From an uncultured archaeon (GTDB lineage Archaea; Asgardarchaeota; Lokiarchaeia; Sigyniarchaeales; SOKP01), in assembly GCA_964525635.1 (NCBI GenBank), contig CAZGJX010000142.1, positions 1 through 8,893 of the forward strand: a DNA stretch of 8,893 bases. Reading direction: 5' to 3'. Positions 3,148 through 8,721 of this stretch are shown here, in pieces. Numbering within the stretch: the stretch's first letter is position 1; every line of letters starts with the position of its first letter. Position numbers and translations under genes: made by a program. Under the pieces are notes generated by a model, which saw only the letters and a program-made list of their open reading frames with translations, did not search any database and had not been told where the DNA came from.

Positions 3148-3477
3148 TTGATTGTAATTTTCATTGATGACATAGAAGATTTTGTTCAATTTCTGGATAA
3201 ACGTATAATGAATGAGATTTTTTTCGAATTCAGGAAAAAAAGTAAAACAGGTGATCTATCAAATGAAGTTGAGTTTGAAATATTTCTTCATTTTTTATCT
3301 AAAGTAGAAGAATCTATGGTCTTATATGAAACAAAAATTAACATTACTGACTTAAGTACTTCCTTAAATGAAGAGGAAGTAAAAACTAAAATACAAGAAA
3401 TTTTAAGTAAGGTTAATCCTTCTCTTAAATTAATAAAAGGGAAGATCCGTGAGATTTTTCTTTCGTATTCTTTTTAA
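3148..3477 (+). CDS. small hypothetical protein; start uncertain (TTG at 3148, or in-frame ATG at 3208)
   Basis: 109-codon ORF starting 8 nt downstream of the preceding gene on the same strand. No recognisable motif. The track start is TTG, and the first ATG is codon 21 (MNEIFFEF). Its stop overlaps the aIF2-gamma stop on the other strand. Confidence 0.4.
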   Translation: MIVIFIDDIEDFVQFLDKRIMNEIFFEFRKKSKTGDLSNEVEFEIFLHFLSKVEESMVLYETKINITDLSTSLNEEEVKTKIQEILSKVNPSLKLIKGKIREIFLSYSF

Positions 3478-4666
3478 TTTATTCTCTTTCCATAACCAAT
3501 TAGACGATATCTTCGATTTATGATCCTTGAGATAGCAAAAATAAAATTATCAGGTATGCAAACAGGAGGATTTAATTGTATAACATAAGTATCTTTTAAA
3601 ATTTTTTTTACAATTCCGGCGGTCTTTTCAGTTCCTACAACCATAAGTAATCTTTCTCCATGTTTTAAATTATGGATTTTTATCATCTCTTCGGAACCAA
3701 TAACTCTATCTAAAAGATGAACTTCTAGTTCTACTTCCTTAATTATTTCTGGCAAATTATCTAATTTCCCTGCTAAATGACCGATTAATGCATCACCTTT
3801 AGTTAATGCGGGATCTAGTTGTGTTCCAATCCCTATAAGCCCTCCTGGCTTAGCTTCAGTAAGAAAATTACTTCCTTGACTTAAACTTGTGATGATAGAT
3901 TTTATTGGAATATAATCATCTTTTATTTTTAATCCTGGGCGTATTTCTATTTGTTCTCTTAAACTTATTTTTCCTTTTAATACAGATCCTCCAACAACAC
4001 CGCCAACTAGTTTCTCAATTTCAGTTCCAGGTTTATTTACATCAAAAGAACGAGCTATTAAAAATTGAAATTCTTCACTTTCATCAACCTCAGGAGTAGG
4101 AATAAATTCATCAAATGCTCTCACAATAAGCTCAATATTAGCTCCAAAAACAGCAGAGATAGGAATTATTGGTGCATTTTCAGCTACCGTTCCTTTTATA
4201 AAATCTTTAATTTCTTTATAATTTTCAAGAGCTTCTTCTTTATTAACAGCATCAATTTTATTTTGAATAATTATTATATTTTCTATTCCTGCGATATTTA
4301 ATGCAGCTAAATGTTCTCTTGTTTGAGGTTGAGGACAAACCTCATCAGCAGCAATTAATAAACAAGCTCCATCCATAAGAGATGCTCCACTTAACATTGT
4401 CGCCATCAATATTTCATGTCCAGGAGCATCAACGAAGGAGATATTTCTTTTAAATTTCATTTGTCCTTGACAGTTAGGACATTTATATCGAGGTTCTCCT
4501 TTCTTTCTTGAACTTTCTATCATATGTAATGTTGCATATTCATCACATTCTGGACAATATAAAATTGTTGCATTTGAATATCCTAATTTTATAGAAATTC
4601 CTCTTTCTTGTTCTTCTGAGTGCCTATCGGTCCAATCTCCTGTTAAAGCTTTGACTAATGTGGTCT
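3474..4666 (-). CDS. eif2g: translation initiation factor aIF2 gamma subunit, exon 2 (last two bases of the P-loop Lys codon through the stop)
   Basis: The frame of ORF 3474..4523 stays open upstream to 4664. It reads (K)TTLVKALTGDWTDRHSEEQERGISIKLGYSNATILYCPECDEYATLHMIESSRKKGEPRYKCPNCQGQMKFKRNISFVDAPGHEILMATMLSGASLMDGACLLIAADE...IIIQNKIDAV...AENAPIIPISAV...RYRLIGYG. These are the a/eIF2-gamma hallmarks: G2-G5 GTPase motifs (DAPGH, NKID, SAV), a four-Cys zinc knuckle, and domains II/III. The track's M at 4523 is an internal residue. Confidence 0.9.
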
Positions 4667-4695
4667 ATATGGGAAATGCTGAAATAATCATCTCA
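4667..4695 (-). other. 29-nt bulge-helix-bulge (BHB) intron inside the aIF2-gamma coding sequence
   Basis: Minus-strand sequence UGAGAUGAUUAUUUCAGCAUUUCCCAUAU. Removing it joins A4696 to AG4666-4665, which creates AAG (Lys) and restores GHVDHG-K-TTLV in frame. The flanks form a central helix AUGG(4701-4698)/CCAU(4672-4669), 3-nt bulges UA|U and AU|A, an inner 6-bp helix GAGAUG/CAUUUC and an outer 8-bp helix. Details are in the findings. Confidence 0.75.
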
Positions 4696-5110
4696 TACCA
4701 TGATCCACATGTCCTACCAACCCAATGTTGCATTCTGCTTGTTTTATAATTATTTTTTGCATTTTTTTAGCAGAAATATCATCTTTTTTAGGTTTTTTAG
4801 AGATTAGTTTTGTTTCAACTTCAATTTTTTCTAAATGCTCTGTAACTTCTTCAAGTTCTTCTTCAATTTCTATTAAATCTTTTTTTGTATCTATTAAATC
4901 TCCTATTGTATCTTCTAAATCTTCTTCTGAATTCTGTAATAATTTTTTTGCATCCTCTATATATCTTAATGCTGTAGATTCGCCGATACCTTTAACATTT
5001 AATAATTCTCCTAACTTTATATTGGCTATTTTTTCTACGGAATCTATTCCTATAGCTCTCATACGTTCCGCTGTAGTAGTACCTATACCTTTTATTCTTT
5101 CTAACTCCAT
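4696..5110 (-). CDS. eif2g: translation initiation factor aIF2 gamma subunit, exon 1 (about 120-aa N-terminal HhH/acidic/Lys-rich extension plus the start of the G domain up to GHVDHG and the first base of the Lys codon)
   Basis: ORF 4688..5110 ends ...KQAECNIGLVGHVDHG, then MR-stop read from intron sequence. ECNIGLVGHVDHG is the start of the a/eIF2-gamma G1 P-loop. Two HhH motifs lie upstream (IKGIGTTTAERMRAIGI, VKGIGESTALRYIEDA). An alternative internal start, M117 (ATG 4762-4760), would give a canonical-length factor. Spliced CDS is 415+1193=1608 nt, i.e. 535 aa. Confidence 0.85.
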
Positions 5111-5128
5111 AATATTACTTTAAATTTA

Positions 5129-5148
5129 CTATTTCAATCTATTTCAAT
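5129..5148. repeat. perfect tandem direct repeat, 2 x 10 bp (CTATTTCAAT CTATTTCAAT), 19-38 nt upstream of the aIF2-gamma start codon
   Basis: Read directly: 5129-5138 and 5139-5148 are identical. On the gene strand the repeat is ATTGAAATAG x2. Function unknown; it lies in the expected promoter/5' leader zone. Confidence 0.6.
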
Positions 5149-5535
5149 ATTACAATAAAACATGTAAATTATTATTAAGAATGCATTATGAATAATAAAA
5201 CTATTCCAAATTACTTTATGATATCTAAAAAACCGTTATGAGGAACAAGAGTAAAAATTGATAAAATCTATCAAATTAATAAGGAAAGATGATATTTTTA
5301 CAACAAGTTAGTATTTGTCTTTCCAAATATCCAATTATTTTTTTAATTCTTAATGATAAAATCTTGGTTAATTAAGATGTAAAATTCCATTTTAAAAATT
5401 AACTTTATTTAAATAATAACTACTTACTGAAATAACTATATTAATTTATAATAGTTTTATCTTGAATAATTTTAGAAAAAGCATCTAAATAAAGATAAAA
5501 ATAAAAAGAATTTTGACCTTTTTTCTAAACTGAGT

Positions 5536-5772
5536 TTATGAATCTGATTTAAGTGTTTCAATCGTTTTTATTGCGCCAGGTTTTTTTTCTGGTTCAATAT
5601 AAGAAACCCCAAGTTGACTATCTAAAAAGAAAGTCGATGTTTTTCCACAAGTATCTTCATTATGATGAATATAAACAGGAGAGGGATATTTACTATTATC
5701 AATATCATCCTTATTTACTCTAAAGACAATTTTTTGACTACAATGGGGACAAACATTAAATTTAAGTGGCAT
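5536..5772 (-). CDS. small hypothetical protein with a possible CxxC...HH...C zinc-binding site
   Basis: 78-aa ORF: MPLKFNVCPHCSQKIVFRV...VYIHHNEDTCGKTS... It is divergent from the C25-like gene. It contains a CPHC knuckle plus downstream His/Cys. No family was recognised. Confidence 0.5.
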   Translation of the reverse strand: MPLKFNVCPHCSQKIVFRVNKDDIDNSKYPSPVYIHHNEDTCGKTSTFFLDSQLGVSYIEPEKKPGAIKTIETLKSDS

Positions 5773-5874
5773 TTGCTTTTTAAATCAATACATTCTTTCT
5801 TAAAATAAGAAAATTCTTATTTTTAAATTCTTATTTAATTAAATATAAAATTTATATTTTCATATTGAACTGAA

Positions 5875-8019
5875 ATGTTTTTGAAAAAAAGGAAAGAGAG
5901 AAATCTTATAATCTTTTTAATTTTATTCTTATGTCCTATTATATTTGGGAATTATTCTATAAACCTTACTCAAAATCAGATTTATTCTACTCAAATTAAC
6001 ACTTCAGCTAGTATTGCTGAAATAGATTTCTCTCATTTACCTGAAATCGATTATGATGCTTTAAATAAGAGTTGGTATAAACCTAAAATAGAAATGTTGA
6101 TCATTGCTCCAGAAGGAAGAGGGGATTTCATACTTGAATTAGAGCCATTAGTGGAATGGAAAAATCAAAAAGGTGTAAAAACAATAATTTTAGATAATTA
6201 TTCCTTATATGGAGGGAGAGATCCTCAAGAAAGTATACGAAATATGATCAAATCCTTTTATGAATCAGACGGAATTCGATGGGTTTTATTAGCTGGAGAT
6301 GCTCAAGATAATTTACTTCCAATCAGATATGTATATAATCCTGATACAAGAGATATAGGTAGTTCTGAAATTGTAGGTAATCTTGTTTCTAAACCAACAG
6401 ATTATTATTACGCGGACCTCACAGGAGATTGGGATGAGGATGAAGATAATTTATTTGGAGAATCTCAAGAATATAATTCTCATGGTGTTGATGAAATTGA
6501 TTGGATCCCTGAAGTATATGTTGGTAGACTACCAGCTAATAATGCAATAGAATTAGCTAAAATGGTACAAAAAACACTTAAATATGAGAAGAATCCTGAT
6601 GGGGGAGAATGGATGAATAGAATGTTATTAGCTGGAGGGATATCAGATACAATATCTGAAGAACCACCTGATGGTGAAGATGAATCTGTTTTAACAACTT
6701 ATATATGGCAAAATTATGTGCAAGATGAAATGAATTTTACTCACCTTTGGAGATCCACATCAGCATACACACCTCCCGATCCAAAAGAACCTCTTAATCA
6801 AACTAGTTTTATAGATAATTTTAATGAGGGTTATTCTACAATGATGTTCGCGGGCCATGGTGCTCCTTTTTTATATAATGATAAATCAGGGACAATCTAT
6901 ACGAACACAAACGCTCAAAATTGCAACAATACGAATAATCCATCACTTATATATGCTGATGCTTGTTCAACCTCTACATATGATATTGTTTCAGGTACAG
7001 GTAATGATAATAGTATTGGAGAAATATTAATTAATCAATCTAATAAAGGAGCAATTGGTTATGTAGGTGCTCTTAGAGTTACATGGTATTATACTGATGA
7101 TTATGATTTGGAAAGGTTAAATCGTGCAAATGCAAAATTATTTTGGAGAGAATTTTTTGAAGAAAAAAAATTCCAACAAGGAAGAACATTATATGACTCA
7201 AAGGTAACCTATATGAATACAGATTATTATAAATATGAAAGAATTCTCCCCGCCCATAGAGAAGCAGATCGTAAAAATCTCTTAACATATTGTCTCTTGG
7301 GTGATCCTGAGGTGGATATATACACAGGGATACCAAGTGAGGTAGACAATCCTTTTGAACCAAATTACTACGAAGGACAATTACTTAATATTACTATAAA
7401 AGACAATCTTGATAGAATTAGTCCATATCCTAGAGTTCATCTGAAAACAGATGATGGTATATACCATACGGAATATGGAGATAAAAATGGAAATCTGCTT
7501 ATTCGCCTGCCTCCTGGAGCTGGAAAAATATATAACGTCTCAATTTCAGGGCACAATCTTATAATCTCAAATTTTAGCTTTACAACTATAGCAGACACAG
7601 AAAGTCCAGAGATATTATATCATAGTTTAACACCAAGAAATCCCACATTACAATCTCATTTAAATTTTACAGTTATATCCCAAGATAATGAATCAGGTAT
7701 AGAAGGTGTTTTTGTACTCATTTCAAAAGATAATTTTAATAGTTATTTCTATCAAAGATATCCCTATGATTGTCATAAAGATGAGACCGAATTTAATTGT
7801 ATAACCAATCGTTTTGAACCAGGAGATTATAGTTATCTCTATTTCATTCGAGACTATTTGAATCATACAGACATTGTCTATGAATCTACTTTTAAATTTT
7901 CTATTCCAACACCTGTAACGTATTATTTACTTATCGGTAGTGTAGTTGGTATTGGAATAATAACAATTATTTCAATGTATACTGTATATTGGAGTATAAA
8001 AAAAAAAAAGAAAGATTAG
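5875..8019 (+). CDS. membrane-anchored peptidase C25 (gingipain)-like cysteine protease homologue, clan CD
   Basis: 714-aa ORF with an N-terminal signal/anchor (MFLKKRKERNLIIFLILFLCPIIFG). The C25-type N-terminal region reads MLIIAPE...WKNQKGVKT...IRWVLLAGDAQDNLLPIRY...TDYYYADLTGDWDED...EVYVGRLPANNAIELAKMVQKTLKYE. A candidate catalytic dyad is His328 in MMFAGHGAP (CAT 6856-6858) and Cys364 in LIYADACSTS (TGT 6964-6966). The 36-residue spacing is similar to gingipains. The C-terminus has beta-rich domains, then a TM helix and a KKKKKD tail. Confidence 0.8.
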   Translation: MFLKKRKERNLIIFLILFLCPIIFGNYSINLTQNQIYSTQINTSASIAEIDFSHLPEIDYDALNKSWYKPKIEMLIIAPEGRGDFILELEPLVEWKNQKGVKTIILDNYSLYGGRDPQESIRNMIKSFYESDGIRWVLLAGDAQDNLLPIRYVYNPDTRDIGSSEIVGNLVSKPTDYYYADLTGDWDEDEDNLFGESQEYNSHGVDEIDWIPEVYVGRLPANNAIELAKMVQKTLKYEKNPDGGEWMNRMLLAGGISDTISEEPPDGEDESVLTTYIWQNYVQDEMNFTHLWRSTSAYTPPDPKEPLNQTSFIDNFNEGYSTMMFAGHGAPFLYNDKSGTIYTNTNAQNCNNTNNPSLIYADACSTSTYDIVSGTGNDNSIGEILINQSNKGAIGYVGALRVTWYYTDDYDLERLNRANAKLFWREFFEEKKFQQGRTLYDSKVTYMNTDYYKYERILPAHREADRKNLLTYCLLGDPEVDIYTGIPSEVDNPFEPNYYEGQLLNITIKDNLDRISPYPRVHLKTDDGIYHTEYGDKNGNLLIRLPPGAGKIYNVSISGHNLIISNFSFTTIADTESPEILYHSLTPRNPTLQSHLNFTVISQDNESGIEGVFVLISKDNFNSYFYQRYPYDCHKDETEFNCITNRFEPGDYSYLYFIRDYLNHTDIVYESTFKFSIPTPVTYYLLIGSVVGIGIITIISMYTVYWSIKKKKKD

Positions 8020-8304
8020 GTGGAAAATATTTAATTCATGATATTTATTTTTCCTTATATTATTTCATACTACAATTCATATTTATAAAAAAAATAATAA
8101 TATCTAATTTCAAGTAGCTATTTCAATAACACATTTAAATTTAACGGTTAATATCAGTAAAGTTTAATTAGTACGTATAATTAATTCTATTCAATTTAGA
8201 CCATTATATTTTAAGTTATCATTTCATTGAAATCGAGACACTTAAATATTAAATATGGTTGTTTTAGCCATATAAAAAGATAGCATTAAGCTATAACGCT
8301 GGAA

Positions 8305-8417
8305 GTTAAACTTGAAAGCGTTGACAATAGTACTTCTGTTATTATCAGTGGGAAATGTCAAACTGTGAGTTCGCTTACGGTCATAGTCTTCAAGGAAAAT
8401 ACCCGGACCCATCCGAA
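8305..8417 (+). rRNA. rrf: 5S rRNA body segment 1: loop B 3' side, helix II 3' strand, helices V/IV with loop E, helix I capped by UUCG, loop A, helix II 5' strand, helix III 5' strand, and loop C up to CCGAA
   Basis: Landmarks in order: GUUAAAC (8305-8311); CUUGAA (8311-8316) pairing UUCAAG (8389-8394); AGCG (8317-8320); GACA (8323-8326)/UGUC (8356-8359); AGUAC (8329-8333); CUG/CAG hairpin (8336-8348); GGGAAA (8350-8355); ACUGUGAG (8362-8369)-UUCG-CUUACGGU (8374-8381); CAUAG (8382-8386); ACCCGGACCCAUCCGAA (8401-8417). Confidence 0.8.
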
Positions 8418-8447
8418 TGGCTTTCTAAATTATAGAATCTCCGGGAA
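8418..8447 (+). other. 30-nt BHB intron within loop C of the permuted 5S rRNA
   Basis: Sequence UGGCUUUCUAAAUUAUAGAAUCUCCGGGAA. Central helix UCCG(8412-8415)/CGGG(8442-8445), bulges AA|U (8416-8418) and AA|C (8446-8448), and an inner hairpin GG..UUCUA-AAUUA-UAGAA..UC. Removing it makes CCCAUCCGAA+CCCGGAA contiguous. Confidence 0.65.
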
Positions 8448-8454
8448 CCCGGAA
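8448..8454 (+). rRNA. rrf: 5S rRNA body segment 2 (CCCGGAA: end of loop C, helix III 3' strand, and start of the GAAGUUAAAC element completed by back-joining to 8305)
   Basis: After both joins the sequence reads ...ACCCGGACCCAUCCGAA|CCCGGAA|GUUAAACUUGAA..., which matches the conserved 5S helix III/loop C/loop B core. Total body is 113+7=120 nt. Confidence 0.7.
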
Positions 8455-8481
8455 ACGTTTCTTATATGGCTGAATATATTA

Positions 8482-8489
8482 TTTTTTTT
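8482..8489 (+). terminator. oligo-T tract (T8), a likely archaeal transcription terminator for the 5S precursor
   Basis: TTTTTTTT lies 11 nt downstream of the closing helix. Archaeal RNA polymerase terminates at oligo-T runs. The background is AT-rich, so specificity is limited. Confidence 0.4.
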
Positions 8490-8721
8490 ATTATCTTAAT
8501 TTATAATTTGTAGTTGAAATTCTAAAGATTGAATCTTGATAAATAAATCTTTCAAGAATCGTATTAAAATTGCTTTTTTTTTCTTTCAATGAGGTTTTGA
8601 TTCATTTTTAACCTTCTTATTATATCTTAATTTTTAATAACCTACTACTTAAAATTTTTACCAGATCCTTTTAAATATCAAAAAATCAGTTTTTTACTTA
8701 AAACCAATGAGAGAGTATTAA

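Follow-up and report, generated by a model that had tools for sequence, protein, structure and literature searches.

Does a 30-nt segment lying in loop C of an archaeal 5S rRNA gene leave the transcript as an intron, or does it stay in the ribosomal RNA? The segment occupies positions 8418 to 8447 of the window, i.e., the whole 8,893-nt stretch of uncultured-archaeon DNA that we analyzed, in which all parts of the 5S locus described below lie on the + strand. An initial annotation, made from sequence alone, had read it as a BHB intron within loop C of a permuted 5S rRNA. The comparative data presented here support this reading, with excision remaining an inference and the motif being of a relaxed kind. 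We consider it likely that 8418 to 8447 is a 30-nt BHB mini-intron of the relaxed HBh' type, spliced by EndA and RtcB out of loop C, and, as part of the same joint reading, that its host is a circularly permuted, independently transcribed 5S gene; the splicing itself is inferred without RNA data.

The segment from 8305 to 8454 is a circularly permuted 5S rRNA gene of an Asgard archaeon (Promethearchaeota, Lokiarchaeia-type). At the gathering score of Rfam RF00001 (38 bits), no 5S match was found in the window, and at this threshold none of 19 permuted loci (0/19; the window and 18 relatives) was reported as 5S. Absence of a 5S gene was rejected as the reason; permutation accounts for the miss, because in a gene that is both permuted and interrupted the halves score separately. 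When the covariance model was run on 8372 to 8456, model positions 1 to 53 aligned to 8373 to 8456, the 5' half scoring 17.5 bits (E = 0.1), and the model itself called a 30-nt insertion in loop C, between CCCAUCC and GAACCCGGAA; the 3' half gave a separate match of 16 bits. The Rfam-matched 3' part (8305 to 8369) supplies helices IV and V together with loop E; of helices I and II and of loop B it contains the 3' strands. Helix I is capped by a UUCG tetraloop (8370 to 8373) that bridges the natural 3' and 5' termini. The 5' part follows (8374 to 8417; model positions 1 to 42) and forms exon 1 of the intron; it runs from the 5' strand of helix I through loop A, helix II, and the 5' strand of helix III into loop C, as far as CCGAA. 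Beyond the 30-nt insert, whose reading as a BHB mini-intron rests on comparative and Rfam evidence, lies a 7-nt micro-exon, CCCGGAA (8448 to 8454), between the intron 3' cut and the circularization cut; it starts with the final loop C base, continues as the 3' strand of helix III (8449 to 8452), and ends in AA. The locus fulfills the criteria for a permuted gene, with the 3' part upstream of the 5' part, the UUCG linker, and a leader-trailer BHB at the new junction. ARAGORN detected no tRNA in the window.

As the initial annotation had claimed, removal of 8418 to 8447 and joining of 8454 to 8305 yielded a 120-nt body (8305 to 8417 plus 8448 to 8454). The MFE fold of the rebuilt 120-mer was the 5S three-way junction, at -29.1 kcal/mol, and helices I to V, loops A to E, and the conserved 5S motifs were all present and backed by covariation.

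The gene is flanked by putative expression and processing elements. Upstream of the leader lies a promoter-like A/T box, ACTTAAATATTAAATATGG (8240 to 8258), for which an archaeal TATA/BRE-type role is inferred; relatives carry a conserved ACTTAT(T/A)AAATGG box at an equal distance from the leader. A 10-bp processing stem is formed by the leader strand AGCCAUAUAA (8266 to 8275) and the trailer strand UUAUAUGGCU (8462 to 8471), and between this outer stem and the junction BHB sits a small leader hairpin, AUAGC-AUUAA-GCUAU (8280 to 8294). The leader half of the circularization BHB (8295 to 8305) comprises h' AACG (8295 to 8298), H CUGG (8299 to 8302), and the bulge AA|G (8303 to 8305), with a predicted cut at 8304|8305, and its trailer half (8453 to 8459) comprises the bulge AA|A (8453 to 8455), with a predicted cut at 8454|8455, and h' CGUU (8456 to 8459). 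Positions 8449 to 8452 accordingly have two partners, 8403 to 8406 in mature helix III or the leader at 8299 to 8302 in H of this BHB. Downstream, a T8 run (8482 to 8489) may serve as an oligo-T terminator, a role that is inferred only; T-runs were also found 3' of the trailer in relatives. The leader also matched an Aggregatibacter sRNA weakly, which was put down to chance.

Permuted-order pattern scans yielded 62 further permuted 5S loci, i.e., 63 with the window, comprising 56 distinct sequences. Pattern matches L012, L022, L026, L038, and L046 were excluded as false positives, the first three of these, all from the genome scan, lying in bacterial MAGs. Among the genome matches, 25 of 28 were in MAGs labeled Promethearchaeota, Hodarchaeota, Thorarchaeota, or 'uncultured archaeon' (3), and essentially all permuted loci that carry names came from Promethearchaeota (Asgard) MAGs. 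The locus is syntenic among relatives, in the order aIF2-gamma, peptidase C25, and 5S. Across this set, the 34 pairs of the mature 5S fold were 93.9% paired, with double changes in 15, compared to 32 to 47% when partners were slid. The leader-trailer stem was paired in 90.5% of cells (56 sequences), with 7 of 10 pairs changed on both sides; the small leader hairpin was 78% paired, and all 5 of its pairs covary; in the circularization BHB, H and h' were 97.3% and 93.3% paired, respectively, with covariation in 3 of 4 h' pairs. Of the 56 distinct sequences, 42 have UUCG as the tetraloop, 5 have UUUG, 4 UCCG, 3 UACG, and one each CUCG and UUAG, with covarying closing pairs, and the micro-exon CCCGGAA was unchanged in 56/56.

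We then turned to the insert itself. Every coordinate and pair that had been proposed for the element spanning 8412 to 8452 held, base for base. The exon strand of the central helix H, UCCG (8412 to 8415), pairs with 8442 to 8445 (U8412-G8445, C8413-G8444, C8414-G8443, and G8415-C8442), and the bulges are A8416 A8417|U8418 on the 5' side and A8446 A8447|C8448 on the 3' side. Within the insert, the h' hairpin (8419 to 8441) consists of G8419-C8441 and G8420-U8440, a 2x2 mismatch, and UUCUA (8423 to 8427) paired with UAGAA (8433 to 8437) around an AAUUA loop. The claim of a junction repeat permitting four cut registers was also borne out: GAA occurs at both 8415 to 8417 and 8445 to 8447, and the four excision registers give one product. 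A true 3-nt 5' bulge (AA|N) separates H from h' in all insert sequences at this site, and h' starts directly after it, which meets the flanking-helix criterion for a BHB intron. The 3' site is less regular: the cut in AA|C falls 2 nt after H but lies opposite 5 unpaired bases (ACCCA), which places it in a 5 x 3 internal loop or, within the precursor, a three-way junction. No outer helix adjoins the 3' bulge, helix III (CCGG 8403 to 8406/CCGG 8449 to 8452) lying beyond the 5 x 3 loop, and the motif is therefore of the relaxed HBh' type, not a strict hBHBh'. A further point against our preferred reading is that the window's own h' is broken by the 2 x 2 mismatch after only two base pairs.

Single-sequence folding energies of the intron region were no better than those of shuffles (z from +0.3 to -1.0), and its MFE structures were variable because the CCGG palindromes allow several pairings. 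Thermodynamics alone is uninformative for the intron structure, and only comparative analysis decides. Two competing pairings can be drawn: CCCGG (8402 to 8406, the helix III 5' strand) with CCGGG (8441 to 8445), and UCCGG with CCGGA of the micro-exon, the latter being chosen by the single-sequence MFE of 8401 to 8454. The pairing of CGGG with the helix III 5' strand remains possible, as covariation cannot exclude it, but it explains neither the 5' cut site nor the A-U/G-C covariation of intron positions 2 and 24. The intron also gave a weak match to CRISPR-DR41 (14 bits, E = 1.8), which was attributed to chance.

A referee might suspect a 5S copy that is decaying or has no function, or else an artifact of assembly, with BHB-like pairing arising by chance. 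This view draws on the failure of the Rfam gathering threshold to report 5S in the window or the 18 related loci, and on the frequency of chance pairing: 4/4 pairs in H plus an inner helix of at least 2 bp were met by 13 of 8863 30-mers of the window (0.15%), and by 279 of 200,000 shuffles of the insert (0.14%), a rate of about 0.15% for the window alone that does not vanish across a genome. Against this view, the sequence is identical in two further assemblies (one JGI and one Logan), and hence in three. All 5S helices and the processing stem are under strong compensatory evolution in the 56 distinct orthologous sequences, intron-bearing copies are paired as well as intronless ones (94.4% versus 93.5% for the 5S fold), and the promoter-like and terminator-like elements are conserved. 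We regard this explanation as very unlikely.

Comparison of relatives, a check that the initial annotation had proposed, showed the insert to be present in 26 of the 63 loci (the window and 25 others) and absent from 37. The 23 distinct inserts share one identical site and have a length of 30 nt in 22 cases and 31 nt in one. H (UCCG/CGGG) formed 4/4 base pairs in 22 of the 23 and 3/4 in L027; the 5' bulge AA|N was found in 23/23, and the 3' bulge was AA|C in 22/23 and AU|C in one. The 4-bp helix and its bulges are thus kept, with compensatory changes in h' and none supporting H: the UCCG and CGGG strands are nearly invariant, so H lacks such support, the one change in the exon strand, which scored as 100% paired in the intron-bearing sequences, being a C to U that retains a U-G pair. 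Of the 13 intron pairs, 8 showed double changes, and 88.8% of cells were paired, compared to 14 to 66% when partners were slid; the three basal h' pairs were 97% paired, with compensatory changes in all. RNAalifold returned the same arrangement of H, 3-nt bulge, and h' de novo. The inserts contain copies of adjacent exon sequence.

For all 23 distinct inserts, the predicted cuts regenerate the intronless consensus CCCAUCCGAACCCGGAA, and the spliced loop C equals that of the 37 orthologous loci lacking an intron as well as the Rfam 5S consensus. Some sister loci differ solely by the insert (L003/L051 versus L006/L062, L013/L060/L042 versus L027, and L007/L039 versus L015). The last of these, L015, provides a second, independent case: its insert is a different one of 31 nt, placed 5 nt farther upstream in loop C. 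The L015 insert forms a perfect BHB (H UCCC/GGGA, a 5-bp h', and the bulges AU|U and AA|C) and is likewise predicted to splice to the consensus. Gene anatomy, conserved BHB geometry, covariation, exact presence or absence in orthologues, and the 5S identity of the product are established by these data.

The principal rival is that the 30 nt form an expansion segment retained in mature 5S as an extra loop C hairpin, comparable to that of Halococcus morrhuae. An insert hairpin stacked on a short loop C helix would look alike, presence/absence polymorphism alone fits both an expansion arm and an intron, and large expansion segments are a known trait of Asgard rRNAs (PMC7594248). However, an expansion arm needs neither an exact 4-bp helix, nor exact 3-nt AA bulges, nor a near-fixed 30-nt length, nor a 3' end that reads CGGGAA without exception in 8 or more unrelated insert sequences. 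It would also hold the loop C UCCG paired, whereas intronless relatives conserve the identical loop sequence. The second insert elsewhere in loop C, in L015, has equal cut geometry, and a like architecture interrupts the aIF2-gamma frame, where retention would not be viable. A retained expansion arm is therefore judged unlikely.

The aIF2-gamma gene of the same window provides indirect support for the mini-intron reading. Its reading frame is split by a 29-nt BHB insert at the Lys codon after the GHVDHG motif, and removal of the 29 nt restores GHVDHG-KTTL within a 1608-nt reading frame. The presence of a BHB insert in this essential gene suggests that the lineage splices such mini-introns, an inference made in the absence of RNA data. 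No endA gene was found within the 8.9-kb window. Asgard EndA is of the broad-specificity (alpha-beta)2 type, whose L1 loop permits relaxed BHB substrates (PMC5829648).

These observations can be assembled into a putative pathway. A precursor of about 230 nt would be transcribed, and pairing of leader 8266 to 8275 with trailer 8462 to 8471 would form the first BHB, with cuts at 8304|8305 and 8454|8455. The insert hairpin (8419 to 8441) would form, and CGGG at the insert 3' end would pair with UCCG of loop C; this second 4-bp helix, with a 3-nt bulge 3' of each strand, the one at the 3' site in relaxed form, would expose 8417|8418 and 8447|8448. EndA would cleave all four sites, and RtcB would ligate 8417 to 8448, releasing the intron and creating the junction CCAUCCGAA^CCCGGAA, and 8454 to 8305. 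The predicted end product is a 120-nt 5S RNA with helix I capped by the UUCG tetraloop. Because of this cap, a covalently closed circle is the most likely form of mature 5S; we infer it as the probable end state. Cutting both BHBs at once would free a 7-mer, so an ordered pathway must be assumed, and we infer from the 7-nt micro-exon that the two splicing events are required to be sequential or tightly coupled. Enzymes, ligation, order of steps, and circular end state all have the status of inferences, as neither junction reads nor a mature 5S size are available.

An alternative is that the insert is excised without religation, or by another nuclease, leaving a fragmented or linear-permuted 5S. 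Excised spacers do fragment rRNA in bacteria and organelles, as in the intervening sequences of bacterial 23S. Without ligation, however, CCCGGAA, which provides helix III with its 3' strand, would be set free as a heptamer, although all 56 sequences conserve it perfectly, and all four predicted cut sites lie 2 nt 3' of a strand of a 4-bp helix, which is EndA geometry. EndA products are substrates of RtcB. This alternative is very unlikely, and splicing with ligation remains the preferred reading. A bolder joint reading holds that Lokiarchaeia-type Asgards make 5S as a closed 120-nt circle via the tRNA-splicing machinery, that a class of 29- to 31-nt BHB mini-introns has been gained and lost in the lineage, and that these interrupt both 5S, at two loop C sites, and the essential aIF2-gamma gene; taken together, these propositions go further than we would commit to, and we lean slightly against their all being correct.

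The proposed intron shares with the BHB introns of archaeal 16S and 23S rRNA (Thermoproteales and Desulfurococcales) and with relaxed HBh' tRNA introns a 4-bp central helix, an h' formed within the intron, a predicted cut behind the second base of the bulge, and an RNA core that is restored exactly; it also shares the 3-nt bulge at the 5' site, whereas the 3' site agrees in position only. It differs from them in its 5S host, its length of only 30 nt, the lack of an ORF, the presence of a second BHB 7 nt away, and the absence of an adjacent outer helix. Permuted tRNA genes (Cyanidioschyzon merolae and Thermofilum pendens; PMC3218864, PMC3978253) likewise have the 3' half upstream and a leader-trailer BHB, continuity being restored by cleavage and ligation through a circular intermediate, and extra BHB introns can coexist with the permutation. 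RNase P and tRNase Z reopen the tRNA circle at its natural termini, whereas the permuted 5S, an rRNA, has a conserved UNCG-type tetraloop in place of those termini and shows no evident signal for reopening.

A leader-trailer BHB stem is also used by circular pre-16S and pre-23S, permuted Pyrococcus/Thermococcus 23S, and ribosomal circular 23S; such RNAs are made by EndA and ligase, and the mature species can itself be circular or permuted (PMC7758197, PMC12918454). The 16S and 23S genes are collinear with the mature rRNA and permuted after transcription, whereas here the gene itself is permuted, and 5S is stated not to take part in archaeal rRNA circularization (PMC7758197, PMC12918454). Organellar permuted 5S similarly has helix I ends joined by a short connector and new ends elsewhere, but the molecules are linear and lack both introns and a BHB (Valach et al. 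2014, PMC4267664). The engineered E. coli cp5S, an artificial construct fused to 23S, shows that ribosome function tolerates a 4-nt connector between the native ends (PMC7283268). H. morrhuae 5S is likewise encoded by an archaeal gene with sequence beyond the universal core; its 108-nt insertion is retained, lies in helix V, and lacks BHB geometry. The aIF2-gamma insert resembles the BHB intron of crenarchaeal cbf5 pre-mRNA (PMC2738675), both being short, located in a protein-coding gene, and gained or lost among relatives, but it lies in another gene, in an Asgard lineage, and measures 29 nt.

In the literature searched, permuted 5S is described only from organelles, and no archaeal 5S is reported to be permuted or to contain an intron. 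5S has been called the sole archaeal rRNA neither circularized nor intron-interrupted (PMC12918454), and one listing confines BHB motifs to tRNAs, a single mRNA, and rRNAs, for which 16S/23S work is cited (PMC7714728). The remark that a BHB intron in 5S would be new agrees with this search, and an EndA-type intron in 5S rRNA has probably not been reported before.

If the proposed reading is true, standard annotation misses a 5S gene here (Rfam, 0 of 19 loci), which would affect quality calls of MAGs that require one. Exact gain and loss together with exon-copy inserts would then offer a tractable case for the origin of BHB introns, and the aIF2-gamma intron would widen mRNA splicing in archaea from cbf5 to a further gene, in the lineage closest to eukaryotes. 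Maturation of 5S in a large Asgard clade would hinge entirely on EndA and RtcB, provided that no conventional 5S gene exists elsewhere, which is not excluded, and the mature 5S molecule of these archaea may have no ends.

Positions 8240 to 8490 of the window form an isolated G+C-richer island (0.31 to 0.36) inside a very A+T-rich spacer (0.17 to 0.23), flanked by a peptidase C25-family gene (5875 to 8019) and the next ORF. On the window, Rfam at curated thresholds gave no match and ARAGORN detected no tRNA. At permissive thresholds, the Rfam 5S model matched two separate halves in reversed order, i.e., the 5S 3' half at approximately 8293 to 8371 (16 bits) and model positions 1 to 53 at 8373 to 8456 (17.5 bits, E = 0.1), with a 30-nt insertion opened by the model itself between CCCAUCC and GAACCCGGAA. 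Because the two halves lie in the wrong order, the gene is circularly permuted: the 3' part of 5S (8305 to 8369) comes first, followed by a UUCG tetraloop (8370 to 8373) replacing the natural ends, the 5' part (8374 to 8417), the 30 extra bases (8418 to 8447), and, last, the 7-nt piece CCCGGAA (8448 to 8454). Joining 8417 to 8448 and 8454 to 8305 yields 120 nt, and unconstrained folding of this rebuilt RNA gave the 5S three-way junction with helices I to V at -29.1 kcal/mol. The window's 5S sequence was also found in one JGI contig and one Logan contig.

Related loci were collected with a pattern enforcing the permuted order (TAGTAC...TGGGAA...CCCGGNCCCAT), scanned against one genome per prokaryotic species and against JGI metagenomes. 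Of the 28 matches in the genomes, 25 were true permuted 5S genes: 22 came from MAGs with the names Promethearchaeota, Promethearchaeia, Hodarchaeota or Thorarchaeota, and the other 3 from MAGs with no label beyond 'uncultured archaeon'. In the metagenomes, 37 of 39 matches were true. The permuted 5S loci are orthologous: many of them keep the order aIF2-gamma, peptidase, 5S, with coding regions of 64 to 75% DNA identity. When window positions 3474 to 8454 were compared with the related loci L003, L004, L008, L011, L018, L019, L021, L025, and L029, an order running from aIF2-gamma through small ORFs and a peptidase C25-family surface protein to the permuted 5S was seen to be conserved across divergent Promethearchaeota MAGs.

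In a clean alignment of 56 distinct permuted 5S sequences (A1), the mature 5S structure was 93.9% paired, with both-side changes in 15 pairs, compared to 32 to 47% in slid controls. UUCG closes helix I in 42 of the 56 sequences; the remaining caps are UUUG, UCCG, UACG, CUCG or UUAG, with covarying closing pairs, and circle lengths across relatives are 119 to 123 nt. Pairing in the leader-trailer stem reaches 90.5%, with covariation in 7 of 10 pairs. The junction BHB is conserved: pairing is 97% in its 4-bp central helix H (CCGG/CYGG) and 93% in its flanking helix h', where 3 of the 4 pairs covary. This conservation of structure, cap, stem, and junction BHB shows that the permuted 5S with its junction BHB is genuine and under selection in a large Asgard clade. 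The alternative of a pseudogene or artefact is contradicted by the covariation, the synteny, and recovery in three independent assemblies. With Rfam release 15 at gathering thresholds, no 5S was detected in the window or in any of 18 related loci tested (L006...L029); standard annotation, and MAG quality criteria requiring a 5S gene, will miss the permuted 5S of this clade.

Several further features of these loci were observed. Judged by eye only, the junction BHB of two relatives, L045 and L056 (leader ...GCGCCGGGAAAGTTAAAC, trailer CCCGGAAGCG), appears shifted by one base, with H CCCG/CGGG and bulges GA↓A and AA↓A (arrows, cuts); the ligated product would be unchanged, and in the pairing count it is these two sequences that supply the 'not paired' cells of the junction helix. 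In the window (8255 to 8275) and relatives, the leader begins with bases (AUGGUU in the window, GUGGUU in relatives) that can pair with the leader's own strand of the processing stem (AGCCAU and AACCAC, respectively), thereby copying the trailer's pairing; this hairpin may be a co-transcriptional placeholder, displaced later by the trailer. Among L003 to L069, two conserved boxes lie upstream of 5S, CCA(A/T)ATAAG(A/T)AGGTATTT and AATAACCGTACTTAT(T/A)AAATGG, and many loci have a conserved AAAAATAATTTTTTTAT 40 to 50 nt past the trailer. Because this last element lies beyond the trailer, the primary transcript may extend past the processing stem.

The initial annotation had claimed that the 30 extra bases are a BHB intron in loop C of the permuted 5S, and all of its pairs and coordinates held when checked on the window sequence. 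H is formed by UCCG (8412 to 8415) and CGGG (8442 to 8445), the bulges are AA↓U (8416 to 8418) and AA↓C (8446 to 8448), and h' consists of G8419-C8441, G8420-U8440, a 2 x 2 mismatch, and UUCUA/UAGAA around an AAUUA loop. In the canonical tRNA motif, the last two intron positions (-2 and -1) and nucleotide 38 make up the 3' bulge, which is flanked by the base pairs 32:(-3) and 31:39. By this arrangement, each BHB bulge lies 3' of its 4-bp helix strand and is cut after its second base, exactly the strand geometry that had been proposed. Approximately 0.15% of random 30-mers would yield a 4-bp helix and an h' of at least 2 bp at this site. One correction to the drawing was needed: the 3' bulge has no abutting outer helix, helix III (8403 to 8406/8449 to 8452) being separated from it by a 5 x 3 internal loop. 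As sequence geometry, the motif is of the relaxed HBh' type.

An insert is present in 26 of 63 loci and absent in 37, where CCCAU(N)CCGAACCCGGAA is uninterrupted. Twenty-three distinct sequences have one at the window's exact site; these inserts represent at least eight unrelated sequence types and measure 30 nt, except for that of L029 (31 nt). The 3' end is CGGGAA in all but L008 (CGGGAU); H is 4/4 in 22 sequences and 3/4 in L027, and a U-G pair is preserved in L006 and L062, where the exon strand is UCUG. All 23 have AA↓N as the 5' bulge and 22 have AA↓C as the 3' bulge, with h' beginning directly after the 5' bulge. The intron-only structure was 88.8% paired versus 14 to 66% when slid, with both-side changes in 8 of 13 intron pairs; pair 2-24 is A-U (n = 15), G-C (n = 5) or G-U (n = 3), with no mismatch. 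RNAalifold, given only ACCCGG...CCCGGAA from 12 diverse sequences, recovered helix III, the 5 x 3 loop, H, a 3-nt bulge, and h'. The relative L015 lacks the window-site insert; its loop C is instead interrupted after CCCAU, 5 nt upstream, by a different BHB insert of 31 nt (L015:2428-2482, +; H UCCC/GGGA, bulges AU↓U and AA↓C, 5-bp h'), whose removal also regains the consensus. In a distance tree, intron-bearing and intronless sequences interleave as sister pairs, and the 5S fold is equally well kept in both (94.4% versus 93.5% paired). The L015 insert contains GGAUAAUACCCGGUCCC, a copy of exon sequence just upstream, suggesting that it arose by local duplication; similarly, UCCGAAUGGCU within the inserts of L024 and L048 repeats their own exon-intron junction.

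The window's aIF2-gamma gene (minus strand, 5110 to 3474) is interrupted after GHVDHG by a 29-nt insert (4667 to 4695, minus strand) that splits a Lys codon (A↓...↓AG). All elements of a BHB are present in this insert (H AUGG/CCAU, bulges UA↓U and AU↓A, 6-bp h'), an outer helix having also been drawn by eye, and without it the gene is a 1608-nt in-frame CDS reading GHVDHGKTTLVKALTG. An insert of equal length, position, and geometry, its h' covarying, occurs in the loci L008, L011, and L021, and 11 orthologues lack it. That essential aIF2-gamma is readable only after excision is good indirect evidence that the lineage splices BHB mini-introns. The insert, whose splicing is inferred, looks like an Asgard case of a BHB intron within a protein-coding gene, cbf5 being the only such gene known in the literature searched. 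The protein has an N-terminal extension of approximately 125 aa (4688 to 5110, minus strand; MELERIKGIGTTTAERMRAIG...KGIGESTALRYIEDAK..., then an acidic/lysine-rich linker) that, by eye only, resembles helix-hairpin-helix repeats.

Without RNA data, it is impossible to rule out that the 5S insert is retained as an expansion arm; however, retention would not account for the bulges, the constant length of the helix, the unchanging 3' end, the additional site in L015, or the aIF2-gamma parallel. Excision without ligation, another alternative, would release the invariant heptamer that forms helix III. The data support the reading as a BHB intron in 5S loop C, and splicing of the insert, inferred without transcript data, is likely. 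The weak points of this reading are that H is invariant, CCGG has alternative pairings, single-sequence energies are unremarkable, and transcripts are lacking.

In the pathway we propose, in which the enzymes, ligation, step order, and circular end state are all inferred from sequence alone, EndA would most likely cut at 8304↓8305, 8417↓8418, 8447↓8448, and 8454↓8455, each 2 nt 3' of a 4-bp helix strand, and RtcB would join 8417 to 8448 and 8454 to 8305. The strand from 8442 to 8459 alternates helix, bulge, helix, bulge, helix (CGGG AAC CCGG AAA CGUU), and therefore both BHBs share a three-way junction with the 5S body. Each has a canonical bulge plus h' on one side, i.e., the HBh' form, which is cut by (alpha-beta)2 EndA with an L1 loop, the type reported for Asgard archaea (PMC5829648). 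Intron removal and circularization would probably be ordered, because four cuts before ligation would lose the 7-nt micro-exon. The conserved UNCG-type helix I cap and the lack of a reopening signal suggest that the mature 5S is likely a circle; linking the native 5S termini through 4 nt is tolerated in engineered E. coli ribosomes (PMC7283268).

The 5S insert works like a non-canonical archaeal BHB intron, and its host gene is of the permuted-tRNA type (PMC3218864, PMC3978253). In the literature searched, BHB introns or motifs have been described for tRNAs, 16S/23S rRNA, and one mRNA (PMC7714728), 5S is explicitly left out of the circularization pathway (PMC12918454), and natural permuted 5S RNAs are organellar only (PMC4267664; PMC10085705). 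No 5S intron or permuted archaeal 5S was found in that literature, which left many subscription papers uncovered, and prior description is not fully excluded. What appears to be new is 5S rRNA as the host RNA of a BHB intron, in an unusual tandem-BHB setting. This intron is accompanied by a clade-wide permuted, probably circular 5S rRNA, as well as by an apparent BHB intron in an Asgard protein-coding gene.
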